NCBI GenBank assembly: GCA_035455265.1
Contig: DATIFK010000012.1
Coordinates: 6,035-70,034, forward strand
DNA length: 64,000 bases
From: Anaerolineales bacterium
GTDB lineage: Bacteria > Chloroflexota > Anaerolineae > Anaerolineales > E44-bin32
Direction of reading: 5' to 3'
This document shows, piece by piece, positions 6,837 to 18,783 of this stretch (position 1 is its first letter; the number at the start of each line of letters is the position of its first letter). The position numbers and the translations under genes were made by a program. The notes under the pieces are model-generated. The model worked only from the letters and a program-made list of their open reading frames with translations, did no database searches and was not told where the DNA came from.

Positions 6837-7116
6837 CTGGAGCCTCGGATTTCGGACGGTTCGACTGCGATTTTTCCTCTGCGCTCCCGGAGGGGGTTCT
6901 CGAATCGATTGTGAAGCCGCGCTCAAAGTTGACGCGGCCTCCGTGATGACCTAGAGTCAGGCGTGGAGTCGGATCCTGGCTGCGTCGCCGGGGCGGTCAG
7001 TCCAGCTTCTTTCGACCTCATCGCACCCACTCCACCCGCCCTCGCCTTCGAGACGTCGCAACGATGGGGCACTCCCAGGGTTTATCCCATGTGGACTTCC
7101 TCTTGGTCGTTTCCCC

Positions 7117-7542
7117 GTGAGTGAGGCAATGCCGAAGCCGCTGTTGGTCGATATCTTGGCGTACGCGCCGACGGCCTTTTACCATTGCACGCACTGCGAA
7201 ATCGTCTGGCAGGAGACCGGCTTCAGCCGGCACCTGCGCTCGGAGCAGGCCAGGTCGGGTCTGCCGGAGGACCTGGCGCGCGACTACCAGGCCGTGTCCG
7301 ATTGGGTGCGGGCGATCTTCACCCGCTACGGTGAGGCGTTGGTGGTCCGCGTGATTGACGCGGCCTCCATCGAAGGGTTCCTCATGACCGCCCGCCACCG
7401 CATCCGTACGTTCCCGGCCGTGATCATCGACGGCCGGGAACGTTTTTCCGGCCCGGACTTCACTCCGGCCGAGCAGGCGCTCGCCCGCCGACTGGGTGAC
7501 GGGTCAAGGAGGTGGACCAAGCCAGAAGCCGTCAGTATGTAG
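7117..7542 (+). CDS. hypothetical protein (141 aa)
   Basis: ORF with non-repetitive composition and a CxxC pair (YHCTHCE), directly upstream of cstA. GTG start, with an alternative ATG at 7129. No family recognised. Confidence 0.4.
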   Translation: MSEAMPKPLLVDILAYAPTAFYHCTHCEIVWQETGFSRHLRSEQARSGLPEDLARDYQAVSDWVRAIFTRYGEALVVRVIDAASIEGFLMTARHRIRTFPAVIIDGRERFSGPDFTPAEQALARRLGDGSRRWTKPEAVSM

Positions 7543-7574
7543 GCAACCTGGACGACACGTATCGGAGGGAGTCG

Positions 7575-9497
7575 ATGAATACCCTGTATGTTGTCGTGAT
7601 CGCGGCCATCGCCATCTACGTCGCCTACAACTTCTACGCCAAGCGCATCGATCGGAACGTCATCCAATCGGATGCCAAACGCGCCACCCCGGCGAAGATG
7701 TACATGGACGGCGTGGATTTCATGCCCACCAATCGGAACGTGCTGTACGGCTATCACTTCAAGTCGATCGCCGCCGCCGGTCCGATCGTGGGCGTGATCA
7801 CGGCCGCCAACCTGTGGGGCTGGCTGCCCGCCATCCTGTGGCTGGTGCTGGGCGTCAGCTTCATCGGCTGGGCAAGCGACTACTCGGCCATCATGTTGTC
7901 AGTCCGCAATGAGGGCAACAGCCTGAGCGCCATCTCGCACAAGCTGATCGCCCCGCGCACCCGCACCATCCTGTTCGTGTTCATCTTCTTCTACCTGCTG
8001 CTGATCGCCGGCGCCTTCGTCGGGATCCTGGCCGCCATCCTGTCGGCGCGACCGGATGTGCCCTTCGGCATCCTCGTGCTCGCCCTGATGGGCCTGCTGG
8101 CCGGCCAGATGCTCTACCGGTGGAAGATGGATCTGATCGTCGTGACCGCCATCGTCGTCGTCGTGACCCTGGCGGCGATGATCTTCGGGCCCTTCGGCCG
8201 GCACACGGATGCCGACGGCAAGCTTGTCCAAGGCCCCGTCGGTCAGTTGATCGTGAGCGTCAACAACGTCTTCGACAACCTCACCGGCAAGAAGCCGATT
8301 GAGGCGCTGAGCACTGTCGATCCGACGCTGGCCGATCCGCGCATCCCGGCGCCCAACGCCGAGGGCGTGCGCCCAACGACGGCCACCTTCGATGCCGCCT
8401 CGGGCTCGATCAAGACCTTGCCCAACTACCTCTTCTGGGCGCTGTTCTTGTTCGTGTTCTCGTATCTGGGGGCCAACCTGCCGATCTGGAGGTTCGCTCA
8501 GCCGGTCAACTACATCGGCTTCTGGATCACCCTGCTGACCATCGGCTTCAGCGCCATCGGCGCCGTCCTGGCGCCCCTGACCGGCGCGCTGGACTCGACC
8601 GGCGCCGCCATCGGGACCTTCGCCCTGCCGGCGATCAAGGACCCGGGCCTCGGCTTCGCCCTCGTGGCCGGCAAGGCCTGGCAACCGCTGTGGCCGATGC
8701 TGTTCGTCACCATCGCCTGCGGCGCCATCTCCGGGTGGCACGCGCTCTTCGGCTCGATCGGCACGGCGCGCCAGCTGGAGTATGAAACCGACGGTCTGCC
8801 GGTGGGCGGCGGAGCGATGTTCACCGAGAACACGCTCGCTCTGCTGTCGCTGGTGGCGGTCTCGATCGCCGGTGCCGGCGGCGGCGGCGGCCGCTTCGCG
8901 GCGGGCGTCGGCAAACTCCTGAGCGCGGTCTTCGGCGTGGGCTTCGAGCCCTTCGGCACGGCGCTGGGCTTCGGCGCCTTCGTGGTCATCGTCCTGACGG
9001 TCACGCAGCTCGTCTTCCGCGTGATGCGGGTGACCCTGACCGAGTGGGTCGGCGAGACCGTGCCGGTCGCCCGGGATCCTAACGTCTCGACCATCTTCTC
9101 GATGATCCTGACGCTGGCCCTCGTGCTGACCGGGACCTGGGTCTACCTGTGGCAGATGTTCGGCGCCGCCAACCAACTGATGGCGGCGTTGAGCCTGCTG
9201 GTCGTCACGGTCTGGCTCAAGTCGCAGAAGCGCAATCCGTCGTACGCCTTGTGGCCGACGCTGTTCATGTACATCACCACCCTGGCGGCGACGGCCGTGA
9301 CGGCGCGCAACCTGTACGTGACCATTGCCACCAAGCCCGAGCTCGGCGCCCTGCCGGTCGCCGGTGCCTGGGCGATGATCATCGTGGCGGTGCTGCTGAT
9401 CGTCGCAGCCCTGCTCATCGGGTGGGATGGGTACAACGCTTACCAGCGCTACGCGCGAGGCAAGATGGCGGCGGCCGGCGCGCCGGCGGCGCGCTAG
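7575..9497 (+). CDS. cstA: carbon starvation protein A (peptide/pyruvate transporter family)
   Basis: About 640-aa polytopic membrane protein with a CstA-like N-terminus (AIYVAYNFYAKRIDRNV) and conserved blocks throughout. Start placed at the internal ATG at 7575, preceded by GGAGGGAG. Confidence 0.9.
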   Translation: MNTLYVVVIAAIAIYVAYNFYAKRIDRNVIQSDAKRATPAKMYMDGVDFMPTNRNVLYGYHFKSIAAAGPIVGVITAANLWGWLPAILWLVLGVSFIGWASDYSAIMLSVRNEGNSLSAISHKLIAPRTRTILFVFIFFYLLLIAGAFVGILAAILSARPDVPFGILVLALMGLLAGQMLYRWKMDLIVVTAIVVVVTLAAMIFGPFGRHTDADGKLVQGPVGQLIVSVNNVFDNLTGKKPIEALSTVDPTLADPRIPAPNAEGVRPTTATFDAASGSIKTLPNYLFWALFLFVFSYLGANLPIWRFAQPVNYIGFWITLLTIGFSAIGAVLAPLTGALDSTGAAIGTFALPAIKDPGLGFALVAGKAWQPLWPMLFVTIACGAISGWHALFGSIGTARQLEYETDGLPVGGGAMFTENTLALLSLVAVSIAGAGGGGGRFAAGVGKLLSAVFGVGFEPFGTALGFGAFVVIVLTVTQLVFRVMRVTLTEWVGETVPVARDPNVSTIFSMILTLALVLTGTWVYLWQMFGAANQLMAALSLLVVTVWLKSQKRNPSYALWPTLFMYITTLAATAVTARNLYVTIATKPELGALPVAGAWAMIIVAVLLIVAALLIGWDGYNAYQRYARGKMAAAGAPAAR

Positions 9498-9540
9498 GGC
9501 TTGTTGGTAGGCGAGGCTGGTTCTGCCGATCGGTGAACGC

Positions 9541-9580
9541 GAAGGCCCGCCGGGGCGGTCTCCCGTCTCGGCGGGCCTTC
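9541..9580. terminator. GC-rich hairpin between convergent genes (bidirectional terminator candidate)
   Basis: GAAGGCCCGCCG-N16-CGGCGGGCCTTC, a 12-bp perfect stem. Confidence 0.5.
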
Positions 9581-9590
9581 GACGAACGCG

Positions 9591-10244
9591 TCAGGCTGCG
9601 GCCGCCCGCTGGGCCAAGCCGCGAATGGCGTCGATGTACTCGGCTGCCCGATCGCCCTTCAAGCTCGGCAGCGGTACGTGCAATTCAAACTGGGGCGACT
9701 CGCGTCGAACGCCCAACCGCCAGACCTCCGCGAACGAAGCGCGGGCGTCGTTCAGGAGCGACAGGGCGCCCGGTCGAGAGACCGGCAGGCTCGCTTTCGG
9801 TGCCAGGAAGAGGTGATCGCCGGCGGCCTCTTCTTCCCAGCGCTGCTGGCGAGCGACGGCGATGGCCCGCTGGCCCGTCCAGCTCTGCGGCGAGGCGACT
9901 TCGTACTCGAGCCGCGGCGCCGCCTGCAGTTGTCCGCGAACGATGAGCGTGTCGCGCCGGCCGCGCCCGGCGGCGAGCAGCCACAGCCACGGGACGTCGC
10001 GCGGCGCCAGGACGAGCAAGACCTGGGCCTGGCGGAAGGGTGGCTTGGCCCGGTTGATGGTCAGTTCCACCACCGACGTGCCGAGCCAGCGCAGGGTGGT
10101 CCTTTCGCCCAGATGGGGAAGACCGCCCTGGAGCCAGCGCAGAACGGCGTTGCCGCGGCGTATGTTCCAGATCACGCCGGCAGCGAACCAGCCCATCACC
10201 AGGGCCAGGGCCAGGATCAACCAGGGCTGATAACGAGGGTCCAC
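9591..10244 (-). CDS. hypothetical N-terminally membrane-anchored protein (217 aa)
   Basis: Single N-terminal TM segment (WLILALALVMGWFAAGVIW). Divergent from the ArsA-like cassette. No family recognised. Confidence 0.5.
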   Translation of the reverse strand: MDPRYQPWLILALALVMGWFAAGVIWNIRRGNAVLRWLQGGLPHLGERTTLRWLGTSVVELTINRAKPPFRQAQVLLVLAPRDVPWLWLLAAGRGRRDTLIVRGQLQAAPRLEYEVASPQSWTGQRAIAVARQQRWEEEAAGDHLFLAPKASLPVSRPGALSLLNDARASFAEVWRLGVRRESPQFELHVPLPSLKGDRAAEYIDAIRGLAQRAAAA

Positions 10245-10324
10245 GGCGGCTCCTCCGGTGGATGGATTCTAGCGGCAGGCCGCTCGACCGTCAAAGCGCT
10301 TTGTGGGAGAATCAGCCAGCGCGC

Positions 10325-10645
10325 ATGTCTACCTCCGACCAGCCAACCACCGTGGCGAGCGCCCTTCGCCGCAACTTCGACTCGTTTCGCCACGGCCTGC
10401 GCGACTTCCTGTACGGTATGCTCGGCTACGAGTTGGCCCAGCATGCCCTGGAGATGCGCGCCACCACCGAGGCGCTGTTCCTGTTGGCCACCTTCGGCGA
10501 CATGATCGGCGTGCCCATCCTGCCGCCCTACTACAACCTGCGGCTGCTGCCGTTCGCCGTTCCGAACATCACCTCCTGGAAACGACGCCTGCTGCGCGAG
10601 CGCGAGTTCACCGACGAGCACGACTACGACCTGCACGGTCTTTGA
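10325..10645 (+). CDS. small conserved protein, paralog 1 of 3 (PILPPYYxLRLLP motif), 106 aa
   Basis: Aligns with the ORFs at 10681 and 13062: LYGM...EALFLLATFGDMIGVPILPPYYNLRLLPFAVPNITSWKRRLLRERE. Start chosen at ATG 10325 by paralog length; the ORF extends to 10262. Confidence 0.7.
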   Translation: MSTSDQPTTVASALRRNFDSFRHGLRDFLYGMLGYELAQHALEMRATTEALFLLATFGDMIGVPILPPYYNLRLLPFAVPNITSWKRRLLREREFTDEHDYDLHGL

Positions 10646-10680
10646 GCCGGCGCCATCCCCGGCCGGCGGAAGGAGCTTCC

Positions 10681-10950
10681 ATGACCACCACCACTCCCAA
10701 GAAGTCGATCTGGCAGAATCTCAGGGAGATCATGTACGGCATGGCGACCCACGACATGAGCCGCTATGCCGTTCGCACCCGCGCCAGCATGGAGCACCTG
10801 TTCATCCTGATCACGATGGGTGATCTGATCGGCGTGCCCATCCTGCCGCCTTACTACAGCCTGCGGCTCCTGCCCTACGTCGTCCCTCAAATCTCGACCT
10901 GGAAACGCCGCCTGCTGCGCGAGAAGGACATCTCGGACGCGATGTTCTGA
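10681..10950 (+). CDS. small conserved protein, paralog 2 of 3 (PILPPYYxLRLLP motif), 89 aa
   Basis: GGAAGGAG Shine-Dalgarno block upstream of the ATG. Sequence MYGM...EHLFILITMGDLIGVPILPPYYSLRLLPYVVPQISTWKRRLLREKD. Embedded in the longer track ORF 10303..10950. Confidence 0.75.
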   Translation: MTTTTPKKSIWQNLREIMYGMATHDMSRYAVRTRASMEHLFILITMGDLIGVPILPPYYSLRLLPYVVPQISTWKRRLLREKDISDAMF

Positions 10951-10951
10951 G

Positions 10952-11038
10952 CCCAGCCCCCGGCTGCCCGCTCCCAGCCGCCAGCCGAGAACGGTTGCGG
11001 TCTGGCTGGAGGCTGGCGGCTGGAAGCTGGGAGCCGGG
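10952..11038. repeat. heptad-type (GCTGGNN / CCAGCNN) inverted repeat, intercistronic in the ArsA-like cassette
   Basis: cccagcccccggctgcccgctcccagccgccagccgag ... ctggctggaggctggcggctggaagctgggagccggg. Confidence 0.7.
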
Positions 11039-11073
11039 AAGATGACGACGAGCATTCCGCGAAAGGATCATCG

Positions 11074-12075
11074 ATGAGCCTCCGCGACTCCATCCTGGAA
11101 CACCCTGAACGGCGCTATTTGATGTTCGGCGGCAAGGGCGGCCTGGGGAAGACCACCTTCTCGGCCGCCACCGCCTATTGGCTCGCCTCGCGCGGCAAGC
11201 GCGTGCTGGTCTTCTCCGTCGACCCTCAGGCCAGCCTGTCGGATATCTTCGAGAAGGACATCTTCGGTAAGGGCCCGGTCAAGATGATGGACAACTTGTG
11301 GGCGCAGGAGGTCGATGCCGACCGGCACATCCGCGCCTACCAGGAAGAGATCCGCGCCAAGATCCGCGATATGTACGGGTTCGACTCGGTCCCGGACGAG
11401 ATCGAGCAATACATCCAGGCCGCCAGCGCCGAGCCGGCCATGGAGGAGAGCGCCATCTTCGACGCCGTCGTCGACATCGTCGTGACCGGCGACTATGACT
11501 ACTACATCTATGACCTCGTCCCGTTGGGCCATGCCCTGTACTACTTGAGTATGGCCAAGGTCTACGATGAGTGGATCAACAAGATCACGAAACTGCGCGA
11601 GGAGATGCGCGAGTACGAGGAGATGGTCTCGCGCCTCAAGCGTGAGAAGGACACCGAAGAGGACCACATCCTCTCGGAGCTGCAGTACATTCGCACCCGC
11701 ATCAACGCTTCAAGCCAGATCCTGACCGACAAGGAGAAGACCGCCTTCTACTTCGTGGTGGTCCCCGAGAAGATGATCATCCTCGACACCCAGAAGGCGG
11801 CGGTGCTGTTCTCGCAATTCGACGTCCCGATCGCCGGGTACGTCGTCAACCGGGTGGTGCCCGAGGAGCTGCTGGGCAAGAACATCCCGGCCTATCTCAA
11901 GCATCGCATCGAAATGCAAAAGACCTACATGGAGGAGATACGCCAGGTTTTCGGCGACCAGGTCAGCGCGTACGTCCCCGAACTGGAACGCGACGTGACG
12001 GGCCTGCCGATGATCGAGCGGCTGGCGGAGATCATGTACGGCGACGGAAACCACAAGGCGGGGAGGCCGCGGTGA
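11074..12075 (+). CDS. ArsA/Get3 (TRC40)-family P-loop ATPase, subunit 1 (333 aa, Cys-free)
   Basis: Deviant Walker A FGGKGGLGKTT, switch I-like SVDPQASLSDIF, EESAIFD block, and a degenerate switch II YDLVPLGHALYYL (canonical is DTAPTGH). Contains no cysteine. Confidence 0.85.
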   Translation: MSLRDSILEHPERRYLMFGGKGGLGKTTFSAATAYWLASRGKRVLVFSVDPQASLSDIFEKDIFGKGPVKMMDNLWAQEVDADRHIRAYQEEIRAKIRDMYGFDSVPDEIEQYIQAASAEPAMEESAIFDAVVDIVVTGDYDYYIYDLVPLGHALYYLSMAKVYDEWINKITKLREEMREYEEMVSRLKREKDTEEDHILSELQYIRTRINASSQILTDKEKTAFYFVVVPEKMIILDTQKAAVLFSQFDVPIAGYVVNRVVPEELLGKNIPAYLKHRIEMQKTYMEEIRQVFGDQVSAYVPELERDVTGLPMIERLAEIMYGDGNHKAGRPR

Positions 12076-13052
12076 GCCACAGCGACGTATCCATGAAGCA
12101 GTACATCGCCGACCATCCCGGCTTGCGCTACATCTTCTTCGGCGGCAAAGGCGGGGTTGGAAAGACCGTCATGGCCGGCAGCACGGCCCTTTGGCTGGCG
12201 TCGCAAGGCCGCAAGGTGATTCTGGCCTCGACCAATCCGGTCCACAGCCTGAGCGGCCTGCTGGGACAGAACGTCTTCGGCCAGCCGACCCAGGTCGACG
12301 GCGCGCCCAACCTGTGGGGTTATGAGATCGACACCAAGGAGACCATCGAGCGCTCCAAGAATGAGATTCGAGAGAAGATCCAGTGGTTCTTGAAATTCGC
12401 CGACATCTCGACCAAAGCGGATGACTTCGTCGAGTCGGCGACGATGAACCCGGCCTTCGAGGAGTCGGCCATGTTCGAGAACATGGTCGACCTGATGATC
12501 GGCGACGCCTACCAGGTCTACGTCTTCGACACCGCGCCGACGGCCAACGCCCGGCGCCTGCTGGGGATGTCGCAGGTCTACTCGCTGTGGGTCAACAAGA
12601 TGCTCAAGAGCCGCGAGGAGGCCCGCTCGCTGCGGGAGCTGCTGTCGTTCACCAAGAAGAAGGAATCCGACCCCCTGCTCGACTATCTGGTGGCCTTCCG
12701 CGAGCGCATGGGGCGCGCCCGGGAGATGCTGACCGATCCCGAGCGCACGGCCTTCTTTTTCGTGACGCTGGCCGAGGCCTTGCCCATCGCCGTCATCACC
12801 CGCTTCATCGGCTGGTTCCACGAGTTCGGCATCCCGGTGGGCGGAGTCATCGTCAACATGCTGATCGACCGCAAACAGGTGAACGATGCCTCCCCGGACT
12901 TCGTCCGCAACCGCCTGGCCATGCAGGATCGCTACATGGTCGAGATCGGGCAGAAGTTCGAGGGGCTGGTGCGTGCCCAGACGCCGCTGTACGAAGACGA
13001 GGTCCGCCAGGTGGCGAGTTTGCGCCAGCTGGGCGACTCGCTGTTCGTCTAG
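12072..13052 (+). CDS. ArsA/Get3 (TRC40)-family P-loop ATPase, subunit 2 (326 aa, Cys-free)
   Basis: GTG start overlaps the upstream stop (GTGA), with GGGGAGG upstream. Walker A FGGKGGVGKTV, altered switch I STNPVHSLSGLL, EESAMFE block, and switch II FDTAPTANARRLL. Contains no cysteine. Confidence 0.85.
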   Translation: MSHSDVSMKQYIADHPGLRYIFFGGKGGVGKTVMAGSTALWLASQGRKVILASTNPVHSLSGLLGQNVFGQPTQVDGAPNLWGYEIDTKETIERSKNEIREKIQWFLKFADISTKADDFVESATMNPAFEESAMFENMVDLMIGDAYQVYVFDTAPTANARRLLGMSQVYSLWVNKMLKSREEARSLRELLSFTKKKESDPLLDYLVAFRERMGRAREMLTDPERTAFFFVTLAEALPIAVITRFIGWFHEFGIPVGGVIVNMLIDRKQVNDASPDFVRNRLAMQDRYMVEIGQKFEGLVRAQTPLYEDEVRQVASLRQLGDSLFV

Positions 13053-13061
13053 GGCGCGCGA

Positions 13062-13322
13062 ATGAACCTGGGCGACATCCGCCGAACGCTCGGCCAGATC
13101 CTGTACGGGATGGCCCTGCACGACAGCGTCCGGATGTTCGCCCGCCAGCGAAGCGGCCTCGAGCACCTCTTCGTCCTGACGAGCTTCGGGGACCTGCTGG
13201 GCCTCCCGATCCTGCCGCCCTACTACAGCCTTCGGTTGCTCCCGTTCGTCGTGCCGCTCATCGGCAACTGGCGCCGCCGCATGCTGCGCGAACGGGACCT
13301 GATGGACAGCATCTTCGGGTGA
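13062..13322 (+). CDS. small conserved protein, paralog 3 of 3 (PILPPYYxLRLLP motif), 86 aa
   Basis: Starts 9 nt after the stop of ATPase 2. Sequence LYGM...EHLFVLTSFGDLLGLPILPPYYSLRLLPFVVPLIGNWRRRMLRERD. Confidence 0.75.
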   Translation: MNLGDIRRTLGQILYGMALHDSVRMFARQRSGLEHLFVLTSFGDLLGLPILPPYYSLRLLPFVVPLIGNWRRRMLRERDLMDSIFG

Positions 13323-13436
13323 AGGAGCGGAGAGGCTCAGCACGGCCAACAGTGGAGCTGCGTCCTCTACACGGGGGTCACGAGCAACCTGGTTCGTAGA
13401 ATGGAGAACCATCGGTCGACACCCAGGAGAATCCCA

Positions 13437-14225
13437 ATGGACCTCGGACTGAAAGGCAAGATCGCCCTCGTCACCGCGGCCTCGAAGGGCCTGGGAAAGG
13501 CGGCCGCCCTGGCGCTGGCGCGGGAAGGCGCGGCGGTGGCGATTTCGGCGCGCAGCGAGTTGATCGACAGCACCGCCGAGGAGATCCGCCGCGAAACGGG
13601 CGCGCGGGTCTTGCCTCTGCGCGGCGACCTGACGCAGGCCGCCTCCGTCCTGGACATCGTCGACCGGACGCTGAAGGAGCTGGGGCCCATCGACATCTTG
13701 ATCGTCAACGCCGGCGGCCCGCCCACCGGGGGCTTCCTCGCCCTGAAGCCGGAGGACTGGGAATCGGCTTTCCAGCTGACGGTCATGAGCGCCGTGCGGT
13801 TGTGTTACGCCGTCGTCCCCCACATGATCGAGCACGGCTCGGGTAGCATCGTCGCCACCCAGTCGTACACCGTCAAGCAGCCCATGCCGAACCTGATTCT
13901 GTCGAACGCGCTGCGGATGGCCGTCATCGGCCTGATGAAGACGCTGGCCGACGAACTCGGGCCGAAAGGTATCCGCGTCAACACGATCAACCCGGCCTGG
14001 ACCTCCACCGAGCGGGTCGATCACCTGATGGCCGACCGCGCCCGCCGGGCGGGCACTACACCCGAGGCCGAGGCGGCCAAGGCCGTCGCGGAGCTCCCCT
14101 TGGGCCGCATGGGCACCGTTGAAGAATACGGGCGGACCGTCGCCTGGCTGGCCTCTCCGGCGGCGTCCTTCATCCACGGCCATGCCCTCATCTTCGATGG
14201 AGGCGCGGTCAGGTCAGCCCTCTAG
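13437..14225 (+). CDS. SDR-family oxidoreductase (FabG-like)
   Basis: Cofactor motif KIALVTAASKGLGKA and a VNAGGP block. Start placed at the internal ATG (MDLGLKGK); the ORF extends to 13401. Confidence 0.8.
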   Translation: MDLGLKGKIALVTAASKGLGKAAALALAREGAAVAISARSELIDSTAEEIRRETGARVLPLRGDLTQAASVLDIVDRTLKELGPIDILIVNAGGPPTGGFLALKPEDWESAFQLTVMSAVRLCYAVVPHMIEHGSGSIVATQSYTVKQPMPNLILSNALRMAVIGLMKTLADELGPKGIRVNTINPAWTSTERVDHLMADRARRAGTTPEAEAAKAVAELPLGRMGTVEEYGRTVAWLASPAASFIHGHALIFDGGAVRSAL

Positions 14226-14295
14226 GCGCTTCCCGAAGACAACTCGGCGGCACAGGCCCGATAGAAACCCCCCGGCAGGGCGCCGTCGACCGTTT

Positions 14296-14320
14296 ACTGA
14301 CAACTGAAGGCTGAAGACTG
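14296..14320. repeat. short heptad-type repeat (single arm)
   Basis: ctgacaactgaaggctgaagactg. Confidence 0.4.
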
Positions 14321-14339
14321 TTCGCGGAGGTCTTGACCG

Positions 14340-15266
14340 ATGAAGATCGCAATCGCCGGTGCGGGCGGCGTTGGAGGATACTTCGGCGGACTCTTGGCGC
14401 TCGCCGGCCACGAGGTAACGTTTCTTGCCCGGGGCGAACACCTGCAGGCCATCCGTCAGCGCGGATTGCGGGTGATCAGCAGCACCCACGGCGAATTCGT
14501 GATTTCGCCGGCGCGAGCCGAGGAAGATCCGGCACGCGTCGGCCCGGTGGATTACGTTGTGGTGGCAGTCAAGACCTATCACCTCGAAGCGCTGGCGCCG
14601 CGCCTGGCGCCGCTGGTGGCCCCCGACACCGCCGTGGTTCCCTTGCTGAACGGCGTCACCGCGCACGAAGTCTTGCGCCGGCATCTTCCCGGGCCGGCCG
14701 TCGTGGGCGGGCTGTGCGCGATCTTCACCCAGATCGAATCGCCGGGCGTGATACGAATGGGCGGCAAGACCAAGACCGTCGTCGTCGGCGAGCTCGACGG
14801 ACCACCGTCGGAACGTCTCAACCGCCTCATCGAAGTGTGGAAGGGTCAAGGGCTCGACGCTTCCCAATCGAACGACATCCTGGCCGCCCTGTGGAACAAG
14901 TTCGTGTTCATCGCCTCCGCCGGCGGGCTGACCTCACTCGCCCGCCTCCCCATCGGCGCTGTGCGCAGTCTCCCCCCTACGAGGGAGTTGTTGACCGAGG
15001 CGTTGGGCGAAGTCGAAGCCGTGGCGCGGAGCCTTGGCGTCCGCCTGGCGCCCGACGTCGTCGAGAAGGCCCTGGCGACGGTCGATCGGTTCGAACCGGA
15101 GGTGACGACGTCGATGCAGCGCGACGTCGCCGCCGGTCGGCTGTTCGAGTTGGAGGCGTTCAGTGGGACCATCGTTCGACTCGGCCAGGAGCACGGGGTT
15201 CCGACCCCGGTCCACCGAGCGATCTATGCGCTGCTCTTGCCCCAGTTGAAAGCCGTTGGGGGGTGA
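14340..15266 (+). CDS. panE: 2-dehydropantoate 2-reductase (ketopantoate reductase)
   Basis: N-terminal MKIAIAGAGGVGGYFGGLLALAGHEVTFLAR with ApbA/PanE-like length and C-terminal domain. GGAGG upstream. Confidence 0.8.
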   Translation: MKIAIAGAGGVGGYFGGLLALAGHEVTFLARGEHLQAIRQRGLRVISSTHGEFVISPARAEEDPARVGPVDYVVVAVKTYHLEALAPRLAPLVAPDTAVVPLLNGVTAHEVLRRHLPGPAVVGGLCAIFTQIESPGVIRMGGKTKTVVVGELDGPPSERLNRLIEVWKGQGLDASQSNDILAALWNKFVFIASAGGLTSLARLPIGAVRSLPPTRELLTEALGEVEAVARSLGVRLAPDVVEKALATVDRFEPEVTTSMQRDVAAGRLFELEAFSGTIVRLGQEHGVPTPVHRAIYALLLPQLKAVGG

Positions 15267-15293
15267 CCCCACGCGCCCGGCGCTGTCGGCGCA

Positions 15294-15340
15294 AGACTGA
15301 GACTGGCTGGAAGCTGGCGGCTGGGAGCCGGCAGCTGACA
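15294..15340. repeat. heptad-type repeat (GCTGGNN units), single arm
   Basis: agactgagactggctggaagctggcggctgggagccggcagctgaca. The core is nearly identical to 11002-11038. Confidence 0.6.
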
Positions 15341-15347
15341 CAAGCCT

Positions 15348-15992
15348 CTAGCCTTCGCTCTGCTCGTGCCGCCGCTCGCCCAGCTTGGCTTCGACGATCC
15401 GTCGAATATCCGCGTGCACCTCGTCGGCGGGTCGAGCGGCGTCGACCTTGACCCAGCGCTGTGGGTCGGCGGCCGCCAGAGCCAGGAACCCCTGGCGCAC
15501 GCGCTCGTGGAACGCCAGGTCATACGCGTCGAGGCGGTTCCATTCACCGTGTTTCTTGCGGCGCATCAGGCCGTCCTGCGCCGCCAGGTCGAGCAGCAGA
15601 GTCAGGTCGGGCACCAGCCCGCCGGTGGCGAAGGTCGTGATGTGGCGCAACGCCTCCAGATCGAGGCGGTGGCCGTAGCCCTGGTAGGCAAAGGTCGAGT
15701 CGTAGAAACGATCGGACACGACCGTACCTCCGGCCTGAAGATGCGGCCGGATGACTTCGTGGCACAACTGCGCGCGCGAGGCGGAGAAGAGCAGCAGCTC
15801 GGTCCGCGGGTGCATCGGCGTGTTGCCCAGGTCGGTCAGCACCCGTCGGATCTGGTCGCCGATGGCCGTGCCGCCGGGCTCGCGCGTCATCAGGACGTCG
15901 AGTCCCTGGCCGCGTAGCGACTCGACCAGGCGTAGCGCCTGGGTCGACTTGCCGCCCCCGTCGGGGCCCTCGAGGGTGATGAAGAGAGACAT
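15348..15992 (-). CDS. tmk: dTMP (thymidylate) kinase
   Basis: P-loop FITLEGPDGGGKSTQ, REPGGT motif, typical length of about 210 aa. Confidence 0.9.
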   Translation of the reverse strand: MSLFITLEGPDGGGKSTQALRLVESLRGQGLDVLMTREPGGTAIGDQIRRVLTDLGNTPMHPRTELLLFSASRAQLCHEVIRPHLQAGGTVVSDRFYDSTFAYQGYGHRLDLEALRHITTFATGGLVPDLTLLLDLAAQDGLMRRKKHGEWNRLDAYDLAFHERVRQGFLALAAADPQRWVKVDAARPADEVHADIRRIVEAKLGERRHEQSEG

Positions 15993-16005
15993 GGCGCCTC
16001 AGCGA

Positions 16006-16066
16006 GTGGCCAGTGGTCAGTGGTCAGTGGAGTCTGATCTTCCTGGCCACTGACCACTCACCACTG
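16006..16066. repeat. heptad-type inverted repeat hairpin (CAGTGGT units)
   Basis: gtggccagtggtcagtggtcagtgg ... ccactgaccactcaccactg; about 20 bp of complementarity with one mismatch. Confidence 0.8.
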
Positions 16067-16083
16067 TTCACTTCCCATGAGCC

Positions 16084-17682
16084 TCATTCCCTGAAGATCC
16101 TCACACGCCGGTTCGGTTCCTTGCCGTACGAATGGGAAACCAGGTTGGCCTGGCGGGCGAGCTGATGCTGGAGCCGACGAATGTACGATGAAGCCGGTGG
16201 AAGGTCAAACGAGCGCGCCCCGTTGAGGACCGTGTCGATGGCCTGCTGTGCCTCCGTCAGGGCGACGTCCAGCGATGACTCCTCCGGCTCGGCCGGCTGG
16301 AGGTTGTACAGGTCGCTCAGGAACCCCTCCATCTGGCCGACCGAATTGGAGCGCAGCACGTATACCGGGATGCGGCGCGATTCTGCCTCGCTGATGAACT
16401 TCTGGCGTCGCCGGTAATAGGCGCGTAAGGTGACGATGACGTCGCACTGAGCGGCATCGTCGGCCAGGATGACCGGCAGGTGCAAGCGCTTGGCGGCGGT
16501 GCGCAGGCGGTTGCGGGCGACCCCGTAGGGGTAGATGCGCAGCGTGGTCAGCGCTTCGCCCGGCATATGAGGCGGCGTTGGGGAAAAAGGCAAGCTGCCG
16601 TTGTCGGACGGCGGCGTCGACGGCAGCGCCGCCGCCGAGCGGCGGTAGCCGGCTTCGGCCGGGGCGCGCGCCGGTCGGGCCATCGGCACCGTCTCGATGT
16701 GGATTTGGCCCGTCTCGTCCCGCCGGCGCAGCTCGGGCGGCAGCGGGCGGCCGCGCAGCATGGCGTCGACGGCGGCAGCGACATCGTGGTGGACCGCCAG
16801 GCGCTCGCGATCCTGGATTTCGATCAGGACATCGAAGGTCGGCGCGGCGCGCCGCTCCAGCACGGTCTTCTGCGTGCCGCGGCGGCGGGCCTCCTCGTCC
16901 GACAGCGTCACCGACTCGATACCGCCGATCAGGTCCGACAAAGTAGGGTTGAGCAGCAAGTTCTCCAGGGTGTTGCCGTGGGCGGTCCCGATCAGCTGCA
17001 CGCCGCGCTCGGCGATCGTGCGGGCGGCGGCGGCCTCCAACTCACGCCCGATCTCGTCGATGACGATGACCTCGGGGTTGTGGTTCTCGACGGCTTCGAT
17101 CATGACTTCGTGCTGCAGGCTCGGCTCGCGCACCTGCATCCGCCGGGCACGGCCGATGGCTGGATGGGCGACGTCGCCGTCGCCGGCGATCTCGTTGGAG
17201 GTATCGACGATGACGACGCGCCGCTCCTCGGCCAGGATGCGGGCCGCCTCGCGCAGCATGGTGGTCTTGCCCACGCCCGGGCGCCCGAGCAGCAGCAGGC
17301 TCTGGCCGCTCGAGATGATGTCCTGGATGATCTCGATGGTGCCGTAGACCGCTCGCCCGACGCGGCAGGTCAGGCCGACGATGTGGCCGCGCCGATTGCG
17401 CAGCGCCGAAATGCGGTGGAGGGTGCGCTCGAGACCGGCGCGGTTGTCGGCGTCGAACTCGCCGACGCGCGTGACGACGAATTCGATGTCGCCGCGCGCG
17501 ATCTCGCGGTCGGCCAGGGTGACCTCGCGGTCGACGAAACGCGCCGTCGGCACGCGCCCGAGATCGAGGATGACCTCCAGCAGGAAGTCCTGGCGGTCGA
17601 CCTGCACCAGGCTGTGAACCAGATCGGGCGGCAGCACGCCCAGCAGGGCGTCGAGGTCGTCGGTGATTCGTTGCTGGGTCAT
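16084..17682 (-). CDS. AAA-type ATPase with C-terminal R3H domain (Ycf45/SpoIIIAA-like)
   Basis: Walker A LLLGRPGVGKTT, Walker B VIVIDEIG, and a C-terminal R3H-like segment (LVSHSYGKEPNRRVRIF). Confidence 0.8.
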   Translation of the reverse strand: MTQQRITDDLDALLGVLPPDLVHSLVQVDRQDFLLEVILDLGRVPTARFVDREVTLADREIARGDIEFVVTRVGEFDADNRAGLERTLHRISALRNRRGHIVGLTCRVGRAVYGTIEIIQDIISSGQSLLLLGRPGVGKTTMLREAARILAEERRVVIVDTSNEIAGDGDVAHPAIGRARRMQVREPSLQHEVMIEAVENHNPEVIVIDEIGRELEAAAARTIAERGVQLIGTAHGNTLENLLLNPTLSDLIGGIESVTLSDEEARRRGTQKTVLERRAAPTFDVLIEIQDRERLAVHHDVAAAVDAMLRGRPLPPELRRRDETGQIHIETVPMARPARAPAEAGYRRSAAALPSTPPSDNGSLPFSPTPPHMPGEALTTLRIYPYGVARNRLRTAAKRLHLPVILADDAAQCDVIVTLRAYYRRRQKFISEAESRRIPVYVLRSNSVGQMEGFLSDLYNLQPAEPEESSLDVALTEAQQAIDTVLNGARSFDLPPASSYIRRLQHQLARQANLVSHSYGKEPNRRVRIFRE

Positions 17683-17706
17683 GAGATCAGCTGTCAGCCT
17701 TCCGTC

Positions 17707-17804
17707 TCAGTTTCCAGTTGCCAGTTGCCAGTTGCCAGTTTCCAGTGCCAATCTCTAGTCTCTAGTCCCCCATCCCCAACCCCCAATCCCCAATCCCCAA
17801 TCCC
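17707..17804. repeat. 14-unit phase-perfect heptanucleotide tandem array
   Basis: TCAGTTT CCAGTTG x3 CCAGTTT CCAGTGC CAATCTC TAGTCTC TAGTCCC CCATCCC CAACCCC CAATCCC x3; the 7-nt phase is unbroken over 98 bp. Confidence 0.9.
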
Positions 17805-17829
17805 GTGCCCCAGGCTTCCCGGGCACTCG

Positions 17830-18783
17830 TCATTGCTTGCTTTCCGCGCGCGCGATGGGCGCCGTCGGTTCCGGATGAGGCTCCAGCGCCGGATGGACGA
17901 CGCGATCGGCGGCGCGTTCGACGGCTGCCAGGCGCCGGACCATGACCGCCTGATCATCGCAGACCTCGAAACCGAAACGCGTCAGGGGTCCGCTCATCCA
18001 GCCCTGGTAGGAGCGCACGCAGACGTACATCGGGCGGGTCGAGCGGTTTTCGCCTTCGTGCAACATACCTGCGAACAGAGGCTCGATCGTCTCGACCGCC
18101 GGGTGAACGTAGGGCTGCAGCCAGATCCCCAGCGGGCCGCGTTCGACCTCCAGGTAACCCCGCAGCTCGTCCTCGTCCCAGTAGACAAAGCCTCGCCGGG
18201 CGCGCGAAGGGCCGGTCTCGACCTGCTGCACCAGTCCCGGCACGAGATTCGCCAGAAGCGATTGCAGCGCCGGCCCGTCGGAAGACAGCTCGGGGCGCCA
18301 CAGGCTGGCGGCGGCCCGGGGGCTCGTCCCCACCTGAGGCTCGCGCCGCCAGATGCGCTGCCGGGCGTAGATGGCGAAGCCGGCCAGGCGCAGGCACTCG
18401 AAGGCCGGGCTGTGCTCGTCGACGTCGGCGATCAGATTGCGCGCGCCGCGAAGCGCGGCGGCTTGGCTCAAGGCATCGAGCAGGCGCAGGCCGCTGGCGT
18501 GTGTCAGGGCTTCCGCCGGCCCGAGGAACACCAGTCGCGCCGGCCCGGACGGTTCGCGCTGAAGGATCTGGCCGATGGCCGTCGGTTCGCCGCCGTTCGA
18601 GCCCGGCGCCACCAGCGTGTGGGTCGGGCGTCCGGGTGTCAGCATGTCGAGCAGGGCGGTCTGGAGGGTTTGCGGGCCGCGTGTGAAGGCGACCTCGGCG
18701 TGCAGGCACAAGCCGAGGGCGCGCACGCGATGGAGGGCGGGCAGGTCGAGCCAGTCGAGAGGGCGAACGCCGGGCTCAGCCAT
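17830..18783 (-). CDS. hypothetical protein, possibly tandem GNAT-like folds (317 aa)
   Basis: Non-repetitive ORF whose ATG overlaps the pdxT stop by 8 nt. The segment [27 protein letters not shown] resembles an acetyltransferase core. Family not firmly recognised. Confidence 0.5.

Follow-up and report, generated by a model that had tools for sequence, protein, structure and literature searches.

The window analysed here is a stretch of 64,000 nucleotides from an Anaerolineales bacterium (contig DATIFK010000012.1, positions 6,035 to 70,034 of the forward strand), and the system in question is a pair of adjacent genes, A1 and A2, that code for two ATPases of the Get3/ArsA fold and lie among genes for small and large membrane proteins. 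An earlier reading of the two ATPases from the letters of the window (the original prediction below) had proposed an obligate asymmetric heterodimer; it had missed the CstA/CstY gene context, as well as a description of such gene clusters published in 2010 (PMC2963123). The genes of the cluster, with lengths in amino acids (aa), are the following.

7117–7542, plus strand: U141, a small protein of 141 aa with a CxxC motif (HCTHC) and a weak DUF1525-like match
7512–9497, plus strand: CstA-family multi-pass membrane transporter, an open reading frame of 661 aa whose true start is possibly at 7575
9591–10244, minus strand: CstY, 217 aa, an alpha/beta domain preceded by an N-terminal transmembrane helix; in divergent orientation to the S1-A2 operon
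10325–10645, plus strand: S1, 106 aa, the first CstX/DUF7990 small-protein paralog (from a three-way alignment)
10681–10950, plus strand: S2, 89 aa, the second CstX/DUF7990 small-protein paralog
11074–12075, plus strand: A1, 333 aa, ATG start, a Get3/ArsA-fold ATPase and the putative catalytic subunit
12072–13052, plus strand: A2, 326 aa, GTG start, a Get3/ArsA-fold ATPase and the putative non-hydrolysing subunit
13062–13322, plus strand: S3, 86 aa, the third CstX/DUF7990 paralog, a lineage-specific extra copy

The start of A2 overlaps the stop of A1 by 4 nucleotides (GTGA), and the two genes are translationally coupled in the window; the gene for CstA is located 1.6 kb upstream of the pair. 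A1 is identical to the GenBank protein HSB88558.1 from an Anaerolineales metagenome-assembled genome.

The cluster was followed in other genomes by a scan for relatives of the small paralogs, with one genome taken per species; at least 597 loci were found, and 80 were fetched. Both S1 and S2 are present in all 80 loci, with S1 as the first gene of the cassette in 80/80, and the order S1-S2-A1-A2 is kept in every locus of sufficient length. A1 and A2 are always adjacent and always in this order; we observed no solitary A1 or A2 among the 80 loci, and no fused version either there or in the top 120 homologs. According to tblastn, CstY is present in 75 of the 80 loci, and CstA is situated upstream of the cassette in 71 of approximately 75, with 53–88% identity. 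CstY-S1-S2-A1-A2 is an almost invariant cassette across at least eight bacterial phyla, and the ATPase pair is linked by gene order to a membrane module, in which CstY and the four-gene cassette form a tighter core than the linkage to CstA. Among the cluster genes, S2 is the most conserved (median identity to the window protein 83%), and A1 (78%) is more conserved than A2 (72%).

This set of genes has been known in silico. Castillo and Saier described in 2010 single-domain ArsA homologues of ~330 aa whose genes share operons with cstA and with cstX, a protein of ~90 aa with a single transmembrane segment, to which in archaea cstY (~210 aa, also with a single transmembrane segment) is added; they reported parallel trees, and with them co-evolution, for the three proteins, and suggested that CstA is energised by the ATPase, CstX serving as linker (PMC2963123). 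The same work drew attention to paired neighbouring ATPases in Pyrobaculum arsenaticum and in Symbiobacterium thermophilum, to duplicated CstX, to a switch I Asp replaced "only by N" in some proteins, to a less conserved DTAP motif, and to the absence of the ArsA cysteines from all single-domain homologues (PMC2963123). The window has all the attributes of these CstA-associated homologues, namely single-domain ATPases of ~330 aa encoded with cstA, a CstX of ~90 aa and a CstY of ~210 aa, and its gene set (CstA, CstX, CstY and ArsA homologues free of the Cys site) matches clusters 14–18 of that study. Judging by size, topology and position, S1–S3 would correspond to CstX, and the 217-aa protein to CstY. 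The 2010 study made no distinction between a catalytic and a degenerate subunit within the pairs and did not describe the loss of the trans-acting lysine considered below; a literature search on CstX and on the cluster yielded no experimental or other work after 2010. The gene set was known; what appears to be new is the conserved asymmetry of the pair, the dispensable trans-lysine and the likeness of one partner to CCDC47.

Two predicted, non-equivalent nucleotide sites

Both proteins match the Pfam family ArsA_ATPase (A1, E = 1.9e-73; A2, E = 8.6e-68), both exceed the 135-bit cut-off of TIGR00345 for the TRC40/GET3/ArsA superfamily (235.5 and 214.9 bits, respectively), and both carry the deviant Walker A motif of this superfamily, GKGGxGK[ST]. 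By these profiles and motifs, A1 and A2 are clear members of the Get3/ArsA superfamily (SIMIBI class, deviant Walker A fold). The nearest solved structures are those of Get3 from two archaea, M. jannaschii (3ug6; E = 7.7e-65 for A1 and 2.6e-55 for A2) and M. thermautotrophicus (3zq6), and HMMER alignments to these two were used for the placement of residues. The identity between A1 and A2 is 35%, and that of each to archaeal Get3 is 32–37%; the duplication is therefore old.

In A1, the P-loop GGKGGLGKTT (11128–11157) holds the signature Lys21 and the Walker A Lys26, switch I reads SVDPQASL (11215–11238) with the catalytic Asp as Asp50, and switch II reads DLVPLGH (11512–11532), that is, D147-L-V-P-L-G-H153. 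In A2, the P-loop GGKGGVGKTV (12141–12170) holds the signature Lys26 and the Walker A Lys31, switch I reads STNPVHSL (12228–12251) with Asn55 at the position of the catalytic Asp, and switch II reads DTAPTAN (12528–12548), that is, D153-T-A-P-T-A-N159. In the alignments, Asn55 of A2 falls on the catalytic Asp of the archaeal STDPAHSL, the switch II of each subunit falls on the archaeal DTAPTGH, and the archaeal CxxC (CDFC or CEFC) falls on LLGKNIPAYL in A1 and on SPDFV in A2. Proteins of the Get3/TRC40 type have the switch I Asp and DTAPTGH in every subunit, and the CxxC zinc clasp at the dimer interface; the A1/A2 pair departs from the first pattern, and the clasp is absent from both subunits.

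The motif strings quoted in the original prediction are all present, it was right that neither ATPase contains a single Cys, and the alignments bear out the loss of both the ArsA cysteines and the Get3 CxxC. Its notion of complementary degeneration stood in part. The catalytic residues of the two subunits are indeed unequal when set against Get3 and ArsA, so that there is degeneration, but it is not complementary: the decisive losses are mainly in A2, whereas the A1 site keeps Asp and D..P.GH.

The same states recur in the orthologs. In an alignment of 69 A1 and 67 A2 orthologs together with the window proteins and two archaeal Get3 sequences, switch I of A1 reads SVDPQASL in 69/70 sequences and switch II DLVPLGHA in 69/70, the single exception looking like a mis-assigned sequence; in A2, STNPVHSL is found in 67/68 (the remaining one being STNPMHSL) and DTAPTANA in 68/68. 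The hosts belong to Chloroflexota, Acidobacteriota, Actinomycetota, Alpha- and Betaproteobacteria, Rokubacteria and Methylomirabilota. The asymmetry between A1 and A2 is thus fixed as far as these sequences go, and since the motif variants are invariant across phyla, they read as fixed, selected states and not as drift. Ongoing degeneration or pseudogenisation of the two genes was considered and rejected on the same grounds.

Nucleotide sites in ATPases of the Get3/ArsA class are composite. The switch I Asp (D57 in yeast Get3) positions the attacking water, and a role of the intradimeric Walker A lysine, contributed across the interface, has been described as well (PMC10248533). If A1 and A2 form a dimer, the A1 site would comprise Asp50 and D147..P.G152-H153 of A1 together with Lys26 from A2, and the A2 site would have Asn55 for Asp, Ala-Asn for Gly-His, and Lys21 from A1. 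The signature lysine (GGKGG) is kept in 68/68 A2 sequences. In A1, Gly stands at the position of Lys21 (GGGGGVGKTT, residues ~19–28) in six proteobacterial orthologs from independent genomes (loci L048, L049, L060, L063, L070 and L080), with the other motifs of both A1 and A2 unchanged in these six pairs. The trans-lysine of A1 would be dispensable, and that of A2 invariant, because the former serves only the dead site and the latter the live one. The loss in A1 is hard to explain unless A1 and A2 heterodimerise.

As for the way in which the two proteins associate, there are two alternatives: they could form one A1:A2 dimer, or they could be independent paralogs, each homodimeric, with A1, for example, as an active ATPase and A2 as a non-hydrolysing holdase or regulator. 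The second arrangement would agree with the homodimeric state of most characterised single-domain Get3 proteins and with the divergence of the pair, as A1 and A2 share only 35% identity and are equally distant from one another and from archaeal Get3. It would leave the strict co-occurrence, fixed order and translational coupling of the genes without a reason, and the CxxC zinc clasp of homodimeric Get3 is absent from both proteins. Moreover, an A1 homodimer would be crippled in the six orthologs because the trans-lysine is lost, and yet the catalytic Asp of A1 is invariant. We therefore regard separate homodimers as distinctly improbable. The sequences and the gene order argue for an obligate A1:A2 heterodimer, as the original prediction had it; the support is indirect and comes from the adjacency, the fixed order, the asymmetry fixed across phyla and the recurrence of distant pairs described below. 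In such a heterodimer, the site capable of hydrolysis would be that of A1. As the GKT of A2 is intact and its VNM has kept the conserved Asn, A2 would still bind ATP but not hydrolyse it.

Distant pairs follow the same pattern. We searched A2 against 1.84 billion cluster representatives and found A2-like proteins (P0393, P0395, P0404 and P0422) in which N or S stands in place of the Asp and Gly-His is missing, as well as P0384, which is 53% identical to A2 and whose own Walker A is destroyed (GGKSSVGNT). Each of the distant A2-like genes is directly downstream of an ATPase gene, and in the four complete cases the upstream gene is A1-like with Asp kept (three with DPQA(S/N)L and one with DFQASL), which again speaks against independent paralogs. 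Two or three of the distant pairs adjoin CstA, and two of those adjoin a DUF7990 gene. The rule that a catalytic A1-type subunit is followed by a degenerate A2-type subunit thus seems, on these sequences, to be ancient and general. The gene for P0384 (L082, 6001–6981, and L083, 4108–5088) follows one for an A1-like protein within a cluster of the order DUF503-CstA-DUF7990-A1-A2, and its sequence suggests that nucleotide binding can be lost entirely from the degenerate subunit. In a further distant CstA-DUF7990-A1-A2 cluster, the next gene (L081, 4626–4841) codes for a 71-aa protein with a YHS/TRASH-type metal-binding domain.

Comparison with known ATPases

Source annotations label proteins of this kind "arsenite-transporting ATPase", and the Pfam ArsA_ATPase match goes in the same direction; according to this version, A1 and A2 would be an arsenite/antimonite-transporting ArsA split into two genes. 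The scores for ArsA proper are far too low, at 102.7 bits for A1 and 104.5 for A2 on the equivalog model TIGR04291 (cut-off 650) and at 127 and 125 bits on NF041417 (cut-off 800). ArsA is a fused chain of two halves (~580 aa), whereas here two genes code for 333 and 326 aa. With no Cys in either protein, there can be no metalloid site of the ArsA type (Cys113, Cys172, Cys422); DTAPTGH is altered in both subunits, and the neighbours are CstA, CstY and DUF7990 genes, with no arsR, arsB, acr3 or arsD near A1 and A2. A split ArsA is hardly tenable, and the annotation of A1/A2 as an arsenite ATPase is wrong.

There are nevertheless similarities to ArsA of E. coli (R773), which has the same fold, with two non-equivalent nucleotide-binding halves facing each other, and which is the peripheral ATPase of a carrier, ArsB, that also works without the ATPase; in the latter respect it is likened to the proposed relation of A1/A2 to CstA. 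In contrast to A1/A2, however, both halves of ArsA keep the switch I Asp and DTAPTGH (alignment to 9nbl), the two are fused in one chain, and the protein has the Cys113/172/422 metalloid site and the ars-operon context. The comparison with the A1 and A2 halves of ArsA made in the original prediction therefore fails at the catalytic motifs. A consensus site combined with a degenerate one is found, in the same arrangement, in many asymmetric ABC transporters.

Archaeal Get3 proteins resemble A1 and A2 in being single-domain ATPases of ~330 aa with the same order of motifs (E = 1e-65 to 1e-49). They differ in forming homo-oligomers, in their canonical STDPAHSL and DTAPTGH, in the CxxC zinc clasp and in a longer, Met-rich insert. 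Another adjacent pair of the Get3/ArsA fold is BagA/BagB (Rv3679/Rv3680) of M. tuberculosis, co-crystallised in 6bs3 (chains A and B). Its alignment with A1 and A2 is limited to the P-loop region (E = 2e-7 to 9e-8), and on the NCBIfam models for BagA and BagB (NF053622 and NF053621) A1 and A2 score 39–52 bits against cut-offs of 400 and 521. The genomic context of BagA/BagB differs from that of the A1/A2 cluster, as does the phenotype, which is tolerance to glycerol and nitric oxide (PMC10597346).

Freedom from Cys is a trait of the family, seen in 64/70 A1 and 57/68 A2 sequences. The seven neighbouring window proteins (7000–18000) are unusually poor in cysteine, with 8 Cys in 2,347 residues (0.34%). 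At this local frequency, the probability of finding no Cys in the 659 residues of A1 and A2 is ~0.1, and the lack of Cys as such was rejected as a significant feature. The meaningful part is the replacement of the CxxC clasp and the absence of the ArsA metalloid site, and not the Cys count.

Membrane partners and the client region

S1–S3 are mutually 49–59% identical, the closest pair being S3 and S2 (59%). They have one hydrophobic segment each (KD19 of 1.41–1.63), and their core, GD..G.PILPPYYSLRLLP..VP...W(K/R)RR.LRE, is almost invariant; in S2 the near-invariant core reads GD..G.PILPPYYSLRLLPYVVP..TWKRR.LRE. The basic W(K/R)RR(L/M)LRE tails pointed out in the original prediction are thus a nearly invariant motif of the family. 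A precomputed match to PF25952 (DUF7990) was present in all 120 listed homologs of the small proteins (82–99% identity), which are labelled hypothetical in all sources; S1–S3 themselves had no Pfam match in a copy that lacks this model. On the NCBIfam model for cory-CC-star (NF041419) the small proteins score 26–32 bits against a cut-off of 80, with E = 4.6e-6 for S1, and having no Cys they have no C-terminal Cys-Cys of this family either; from these sequences they would be only its distant relatives. An AlphaFold2 model of S2 (35 sequences) consists of two helices, 10–50 and 64–88, with a predicted local distance difference test score (pLDDT) of 65, too poor for a fold search.

S3 is found downstream of A2 in approximately 27/80 loci, all from Chloroflexota and mainly from Anaerolineales; one locus (L011) has two CstX/DUF7990 copies there. 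A one-to-one pairing of CstX paralogs with the ATPases was rejected as a rule, since two distant loci (L081 and L082) have two ATPases and one DUF7990 gene, whereas Anaerolineales have three CstX.

In CstY the transmembrane helix covers residues 8–26 (KD19 of 2.16). An AlphaFold2 model from a 45-sequence alignment (pLDDT 93.4; predicted template-modelling score 0.87) has this helix continuing to residue 44, followed by the alpha/beta domain and a C-terminal helix. When the model was compared with the PDB by Foldseek, two chains came far ahead of the rest, 7tm3_4 (E = 4.5e-6, probability 1.00, TMq 0.67) and 6w6l_7 (E = 3.5e-4), and phmmer with the CCDC47 sequence identified both as CCDC47. The third fold match was TtfA (probability 0.80), an accessory factor of the MmpL3 transporter. 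No sequence support for a relation between CstY and CCDC47 was found, either in Pfam up to E = 10 on 45 members or in a profile search of the PDB, and neither CstY nor U141 matched any family of Pfam or NCBIfam above the cut-off. CCDC47 is the single-pass subunit of the PAT intramembrane chaperone of the endoplasmic reticulum, within the multipass translocon, with a transmembrane helix followed by a large cytosolic globular domain (PMC7505659). CstY resembles it in having one transmembrane helix and then a globular domain of the alpha/beta type that faces the cytoplasm; the two differ in that their identity is only 8%, CstY has no long C-terminal ribosome-binding coiled coil, and no homolog of Asterix was identified.

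The client region of the ATPases was compared with that of archaeal Get3. The charged 22-residue segments quoted in the original prediction, EEMREYEEMVSRLKREKDTEED in A1 and KSREEARSLRELLSFTKKKESD in A2, align with the alpha7–alpha8/TRC40-insert region, which in A1 is 4 residues shorter than in archaeal Get3 (MSGF or IGSM) and in A2 lacks the same four and three more, 7 in total. Within these segments A1 and A2 are more charged and less hydrophobic than archaeal Get3, while retaining a hydrophobic stripe with i/i+3/i+4 spacing (L-M-Y-M-V-L in A1). Over the whole helical subdomain, however, the hydrophobic fraction is 0.41–0.46 compared to 0.40–0.42 in archaeal Get3, and the charged fraction is 0.29–0.39 compared to 0.26–0.41; only the Met content is lower. 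Thus, the claim of a charged rather than hydrophobic client region holds for the quoted segments and for Met, and not for the subdomain as a whole. From these alignments it is more probable that the client groove has become smaller than that it has been converted into an electrostatic surface, and the idea of an electrostatic client is only weakly favoured.

These data bear on the alternative that the cassette is a device for membrane-protein biogenesis or quality control and not a pump. In that case, the Get3-like A1/A2 would hold the hydrophobic helix of CstX, or segments of CstA, and deliver them to the membrane, CstY would act as a chaperone or receptor similar to CCDC47/PAT, and the ATPase would offer a docking place for the basic W(K/R)RRLLRE tail. 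Among solved structures, archaeal Get3 proteins are indeed closest to A1 and A2, the well-defined CstY model (pLDDT 93) matches CCDC47 chains best, CstX combines one marginally hydrophobic helix (KD19 of 1.4–1.6) with a near-invariant basic C-terminal helix, and the CstY-S1-S2-A1-A2 core persists without an adjacent CstA in at least two loci, L002 and L068. On the other hand, the TRC40-insert, which is the lid of the client groove in Get3, is shortened and Met-poor here; the hydrophobic segment of CstX differs from a tail anchor in being central and not C-terminal, and in its invariant Asp and its several Pro residues; the likeness to CCDC47 is one of fold only, with no profile match; and the match to TtfA, a transporter accessory factor, suits a pump equally well, so that the modelled CstY fold would fit both a pump and a biogenesis device. 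The linkage to CstA in 71 loci is also explained more easily by a function shared with CstA. Taken together, a biogenesis device seems unlikely to us.

A bolder version of it would make the cassette a bacterial and archaeal counterpart, or a forerunner, of both the GET and PAT pathways, with a Get3-type heterodimer, a CCDC47/PAT-like CstY and the intramembrane CstX. The W(K/R)RRLLRE helix presumably resembles the basic Get3-binding motif of Get2, a likeness that we take as a lead only. The flexible N-terminal domain of Get2 is the first to bind Get3 (PMC10646013). We consider such a common counterpart quite unlikely. To our knowledge, no physical or genetic link between the eukaryotic GET and PAT pathways has been reported.

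The remaining genes are situated at the edges of the cluster. CstA matches the Pfam family of the same name (E = 1.5e-97) and has 13 hydrophobic segments. In the loci L002 (1–5400) and L068 (1–5300) its position is occupied by glycosyltransferase/aminotransferase genes in one and by a molybdopterin-type oxidoreductase in the other. U141 precedes the CstA gene in the window, with a 31-nucleotide overlap with the annotated CstA start, and is found upstream of CstA in 42/80 related loci (tblastn); its Pfam match to DUF1525 (E = 0.0046) is below the cut-off. A promoter/terminator scan yielded no convincing terminators and only one promoter-like site, located upstream of CstY (10294–10266, minus strand). 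Further neighbours in the window are a short-chain dehydrogenase/reductase and a ketopantoate reductase.

Proposed coupling to the CstA module

We think it rather probable that A1 and A2 form an obligate heterodimer with a single hydrolytic site on A1, which powers a module of CstA, CstX and CstY. The hydrolytic site would be composed of the Walker A motif, Asp50 and D..P.GH of A1 and, across the interface, the signature Lys26 of A2. The intact P-loop of A2 would bind ATP, probably as a non-hydrolysed "glue" or as a regulatory site, and this ATP may help to keep the two subunits joined where the zinc clasp is missing, thus replacing the zinc/CxxC pivot of Get3 homodimers. The heterodimer would be the cytoplasmic engine of a membrane module made of CstA, the single-pass CstY and the ~90-aa CstX/DUF7990 proteins: cycling between closed and open states on ATP at the cytoplasmic face, it would relay its motion via CstX and CstY to CstA. 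In this way, CstA, a secondary carrier, would become ATP-coupled or ATP-gated, similarly to what ArsA does for ArsB. The gene linkage suggests that the coupling is to CstA itself.

Several observations weigh against this reading. At least two loci, L002 and L068, and probably L066 as well, have CstY-S1-S2-A1-A2 without CstA immediately upstream, and the distant pair with P0393 (L084, 2080–4057) is located among gas-vesicle-related genes (GvpO, a faint GvpG, HSP20) and not beside CstA. Because of these loci and of this pair, the coupling to CstA is not absolute, and, to judge by its sequence, the asymmetric pair seems to have been reused in another context. Switch II of A1 also departs from the canonical sequence, with L, V and L in place of T, A and T, and therefore the predicted activity of A1 is not guaranteed. 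Finally, the CCDC47-like fold of the CstY model points toward membrane-protein biogenesis rather than transport.

Proteins of the Get3/ArsA fold are understood mainly from the homodimeric eukaryotic Get3 and from the fused ArsA, where both sites are canonical. The A1/A2 pair would represent a third design for this fold, a heterodimer encoded by two genes, in which a consensus site and a degenerate one are both conserved. It is a large family: the species-level genomes that carry it number at least 597, they come from at least eight phyla, and CstX forms more than 5,000 clusters. Through its CCDC47-like fold, CstY may be linked in evolution to the membrane-protein biogenesis factors of eukaryotes. 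The asymmetric pair also gives a handle on the 15-year-old proposal of ATP-coupled carriers of the CstA family, which may be relevant to the scavenging of pyruvate or peptides under starvation by abundant bacteria of soil and groundwater (Anaerolineales, Acidobacteriota, Rokubacteria and others).

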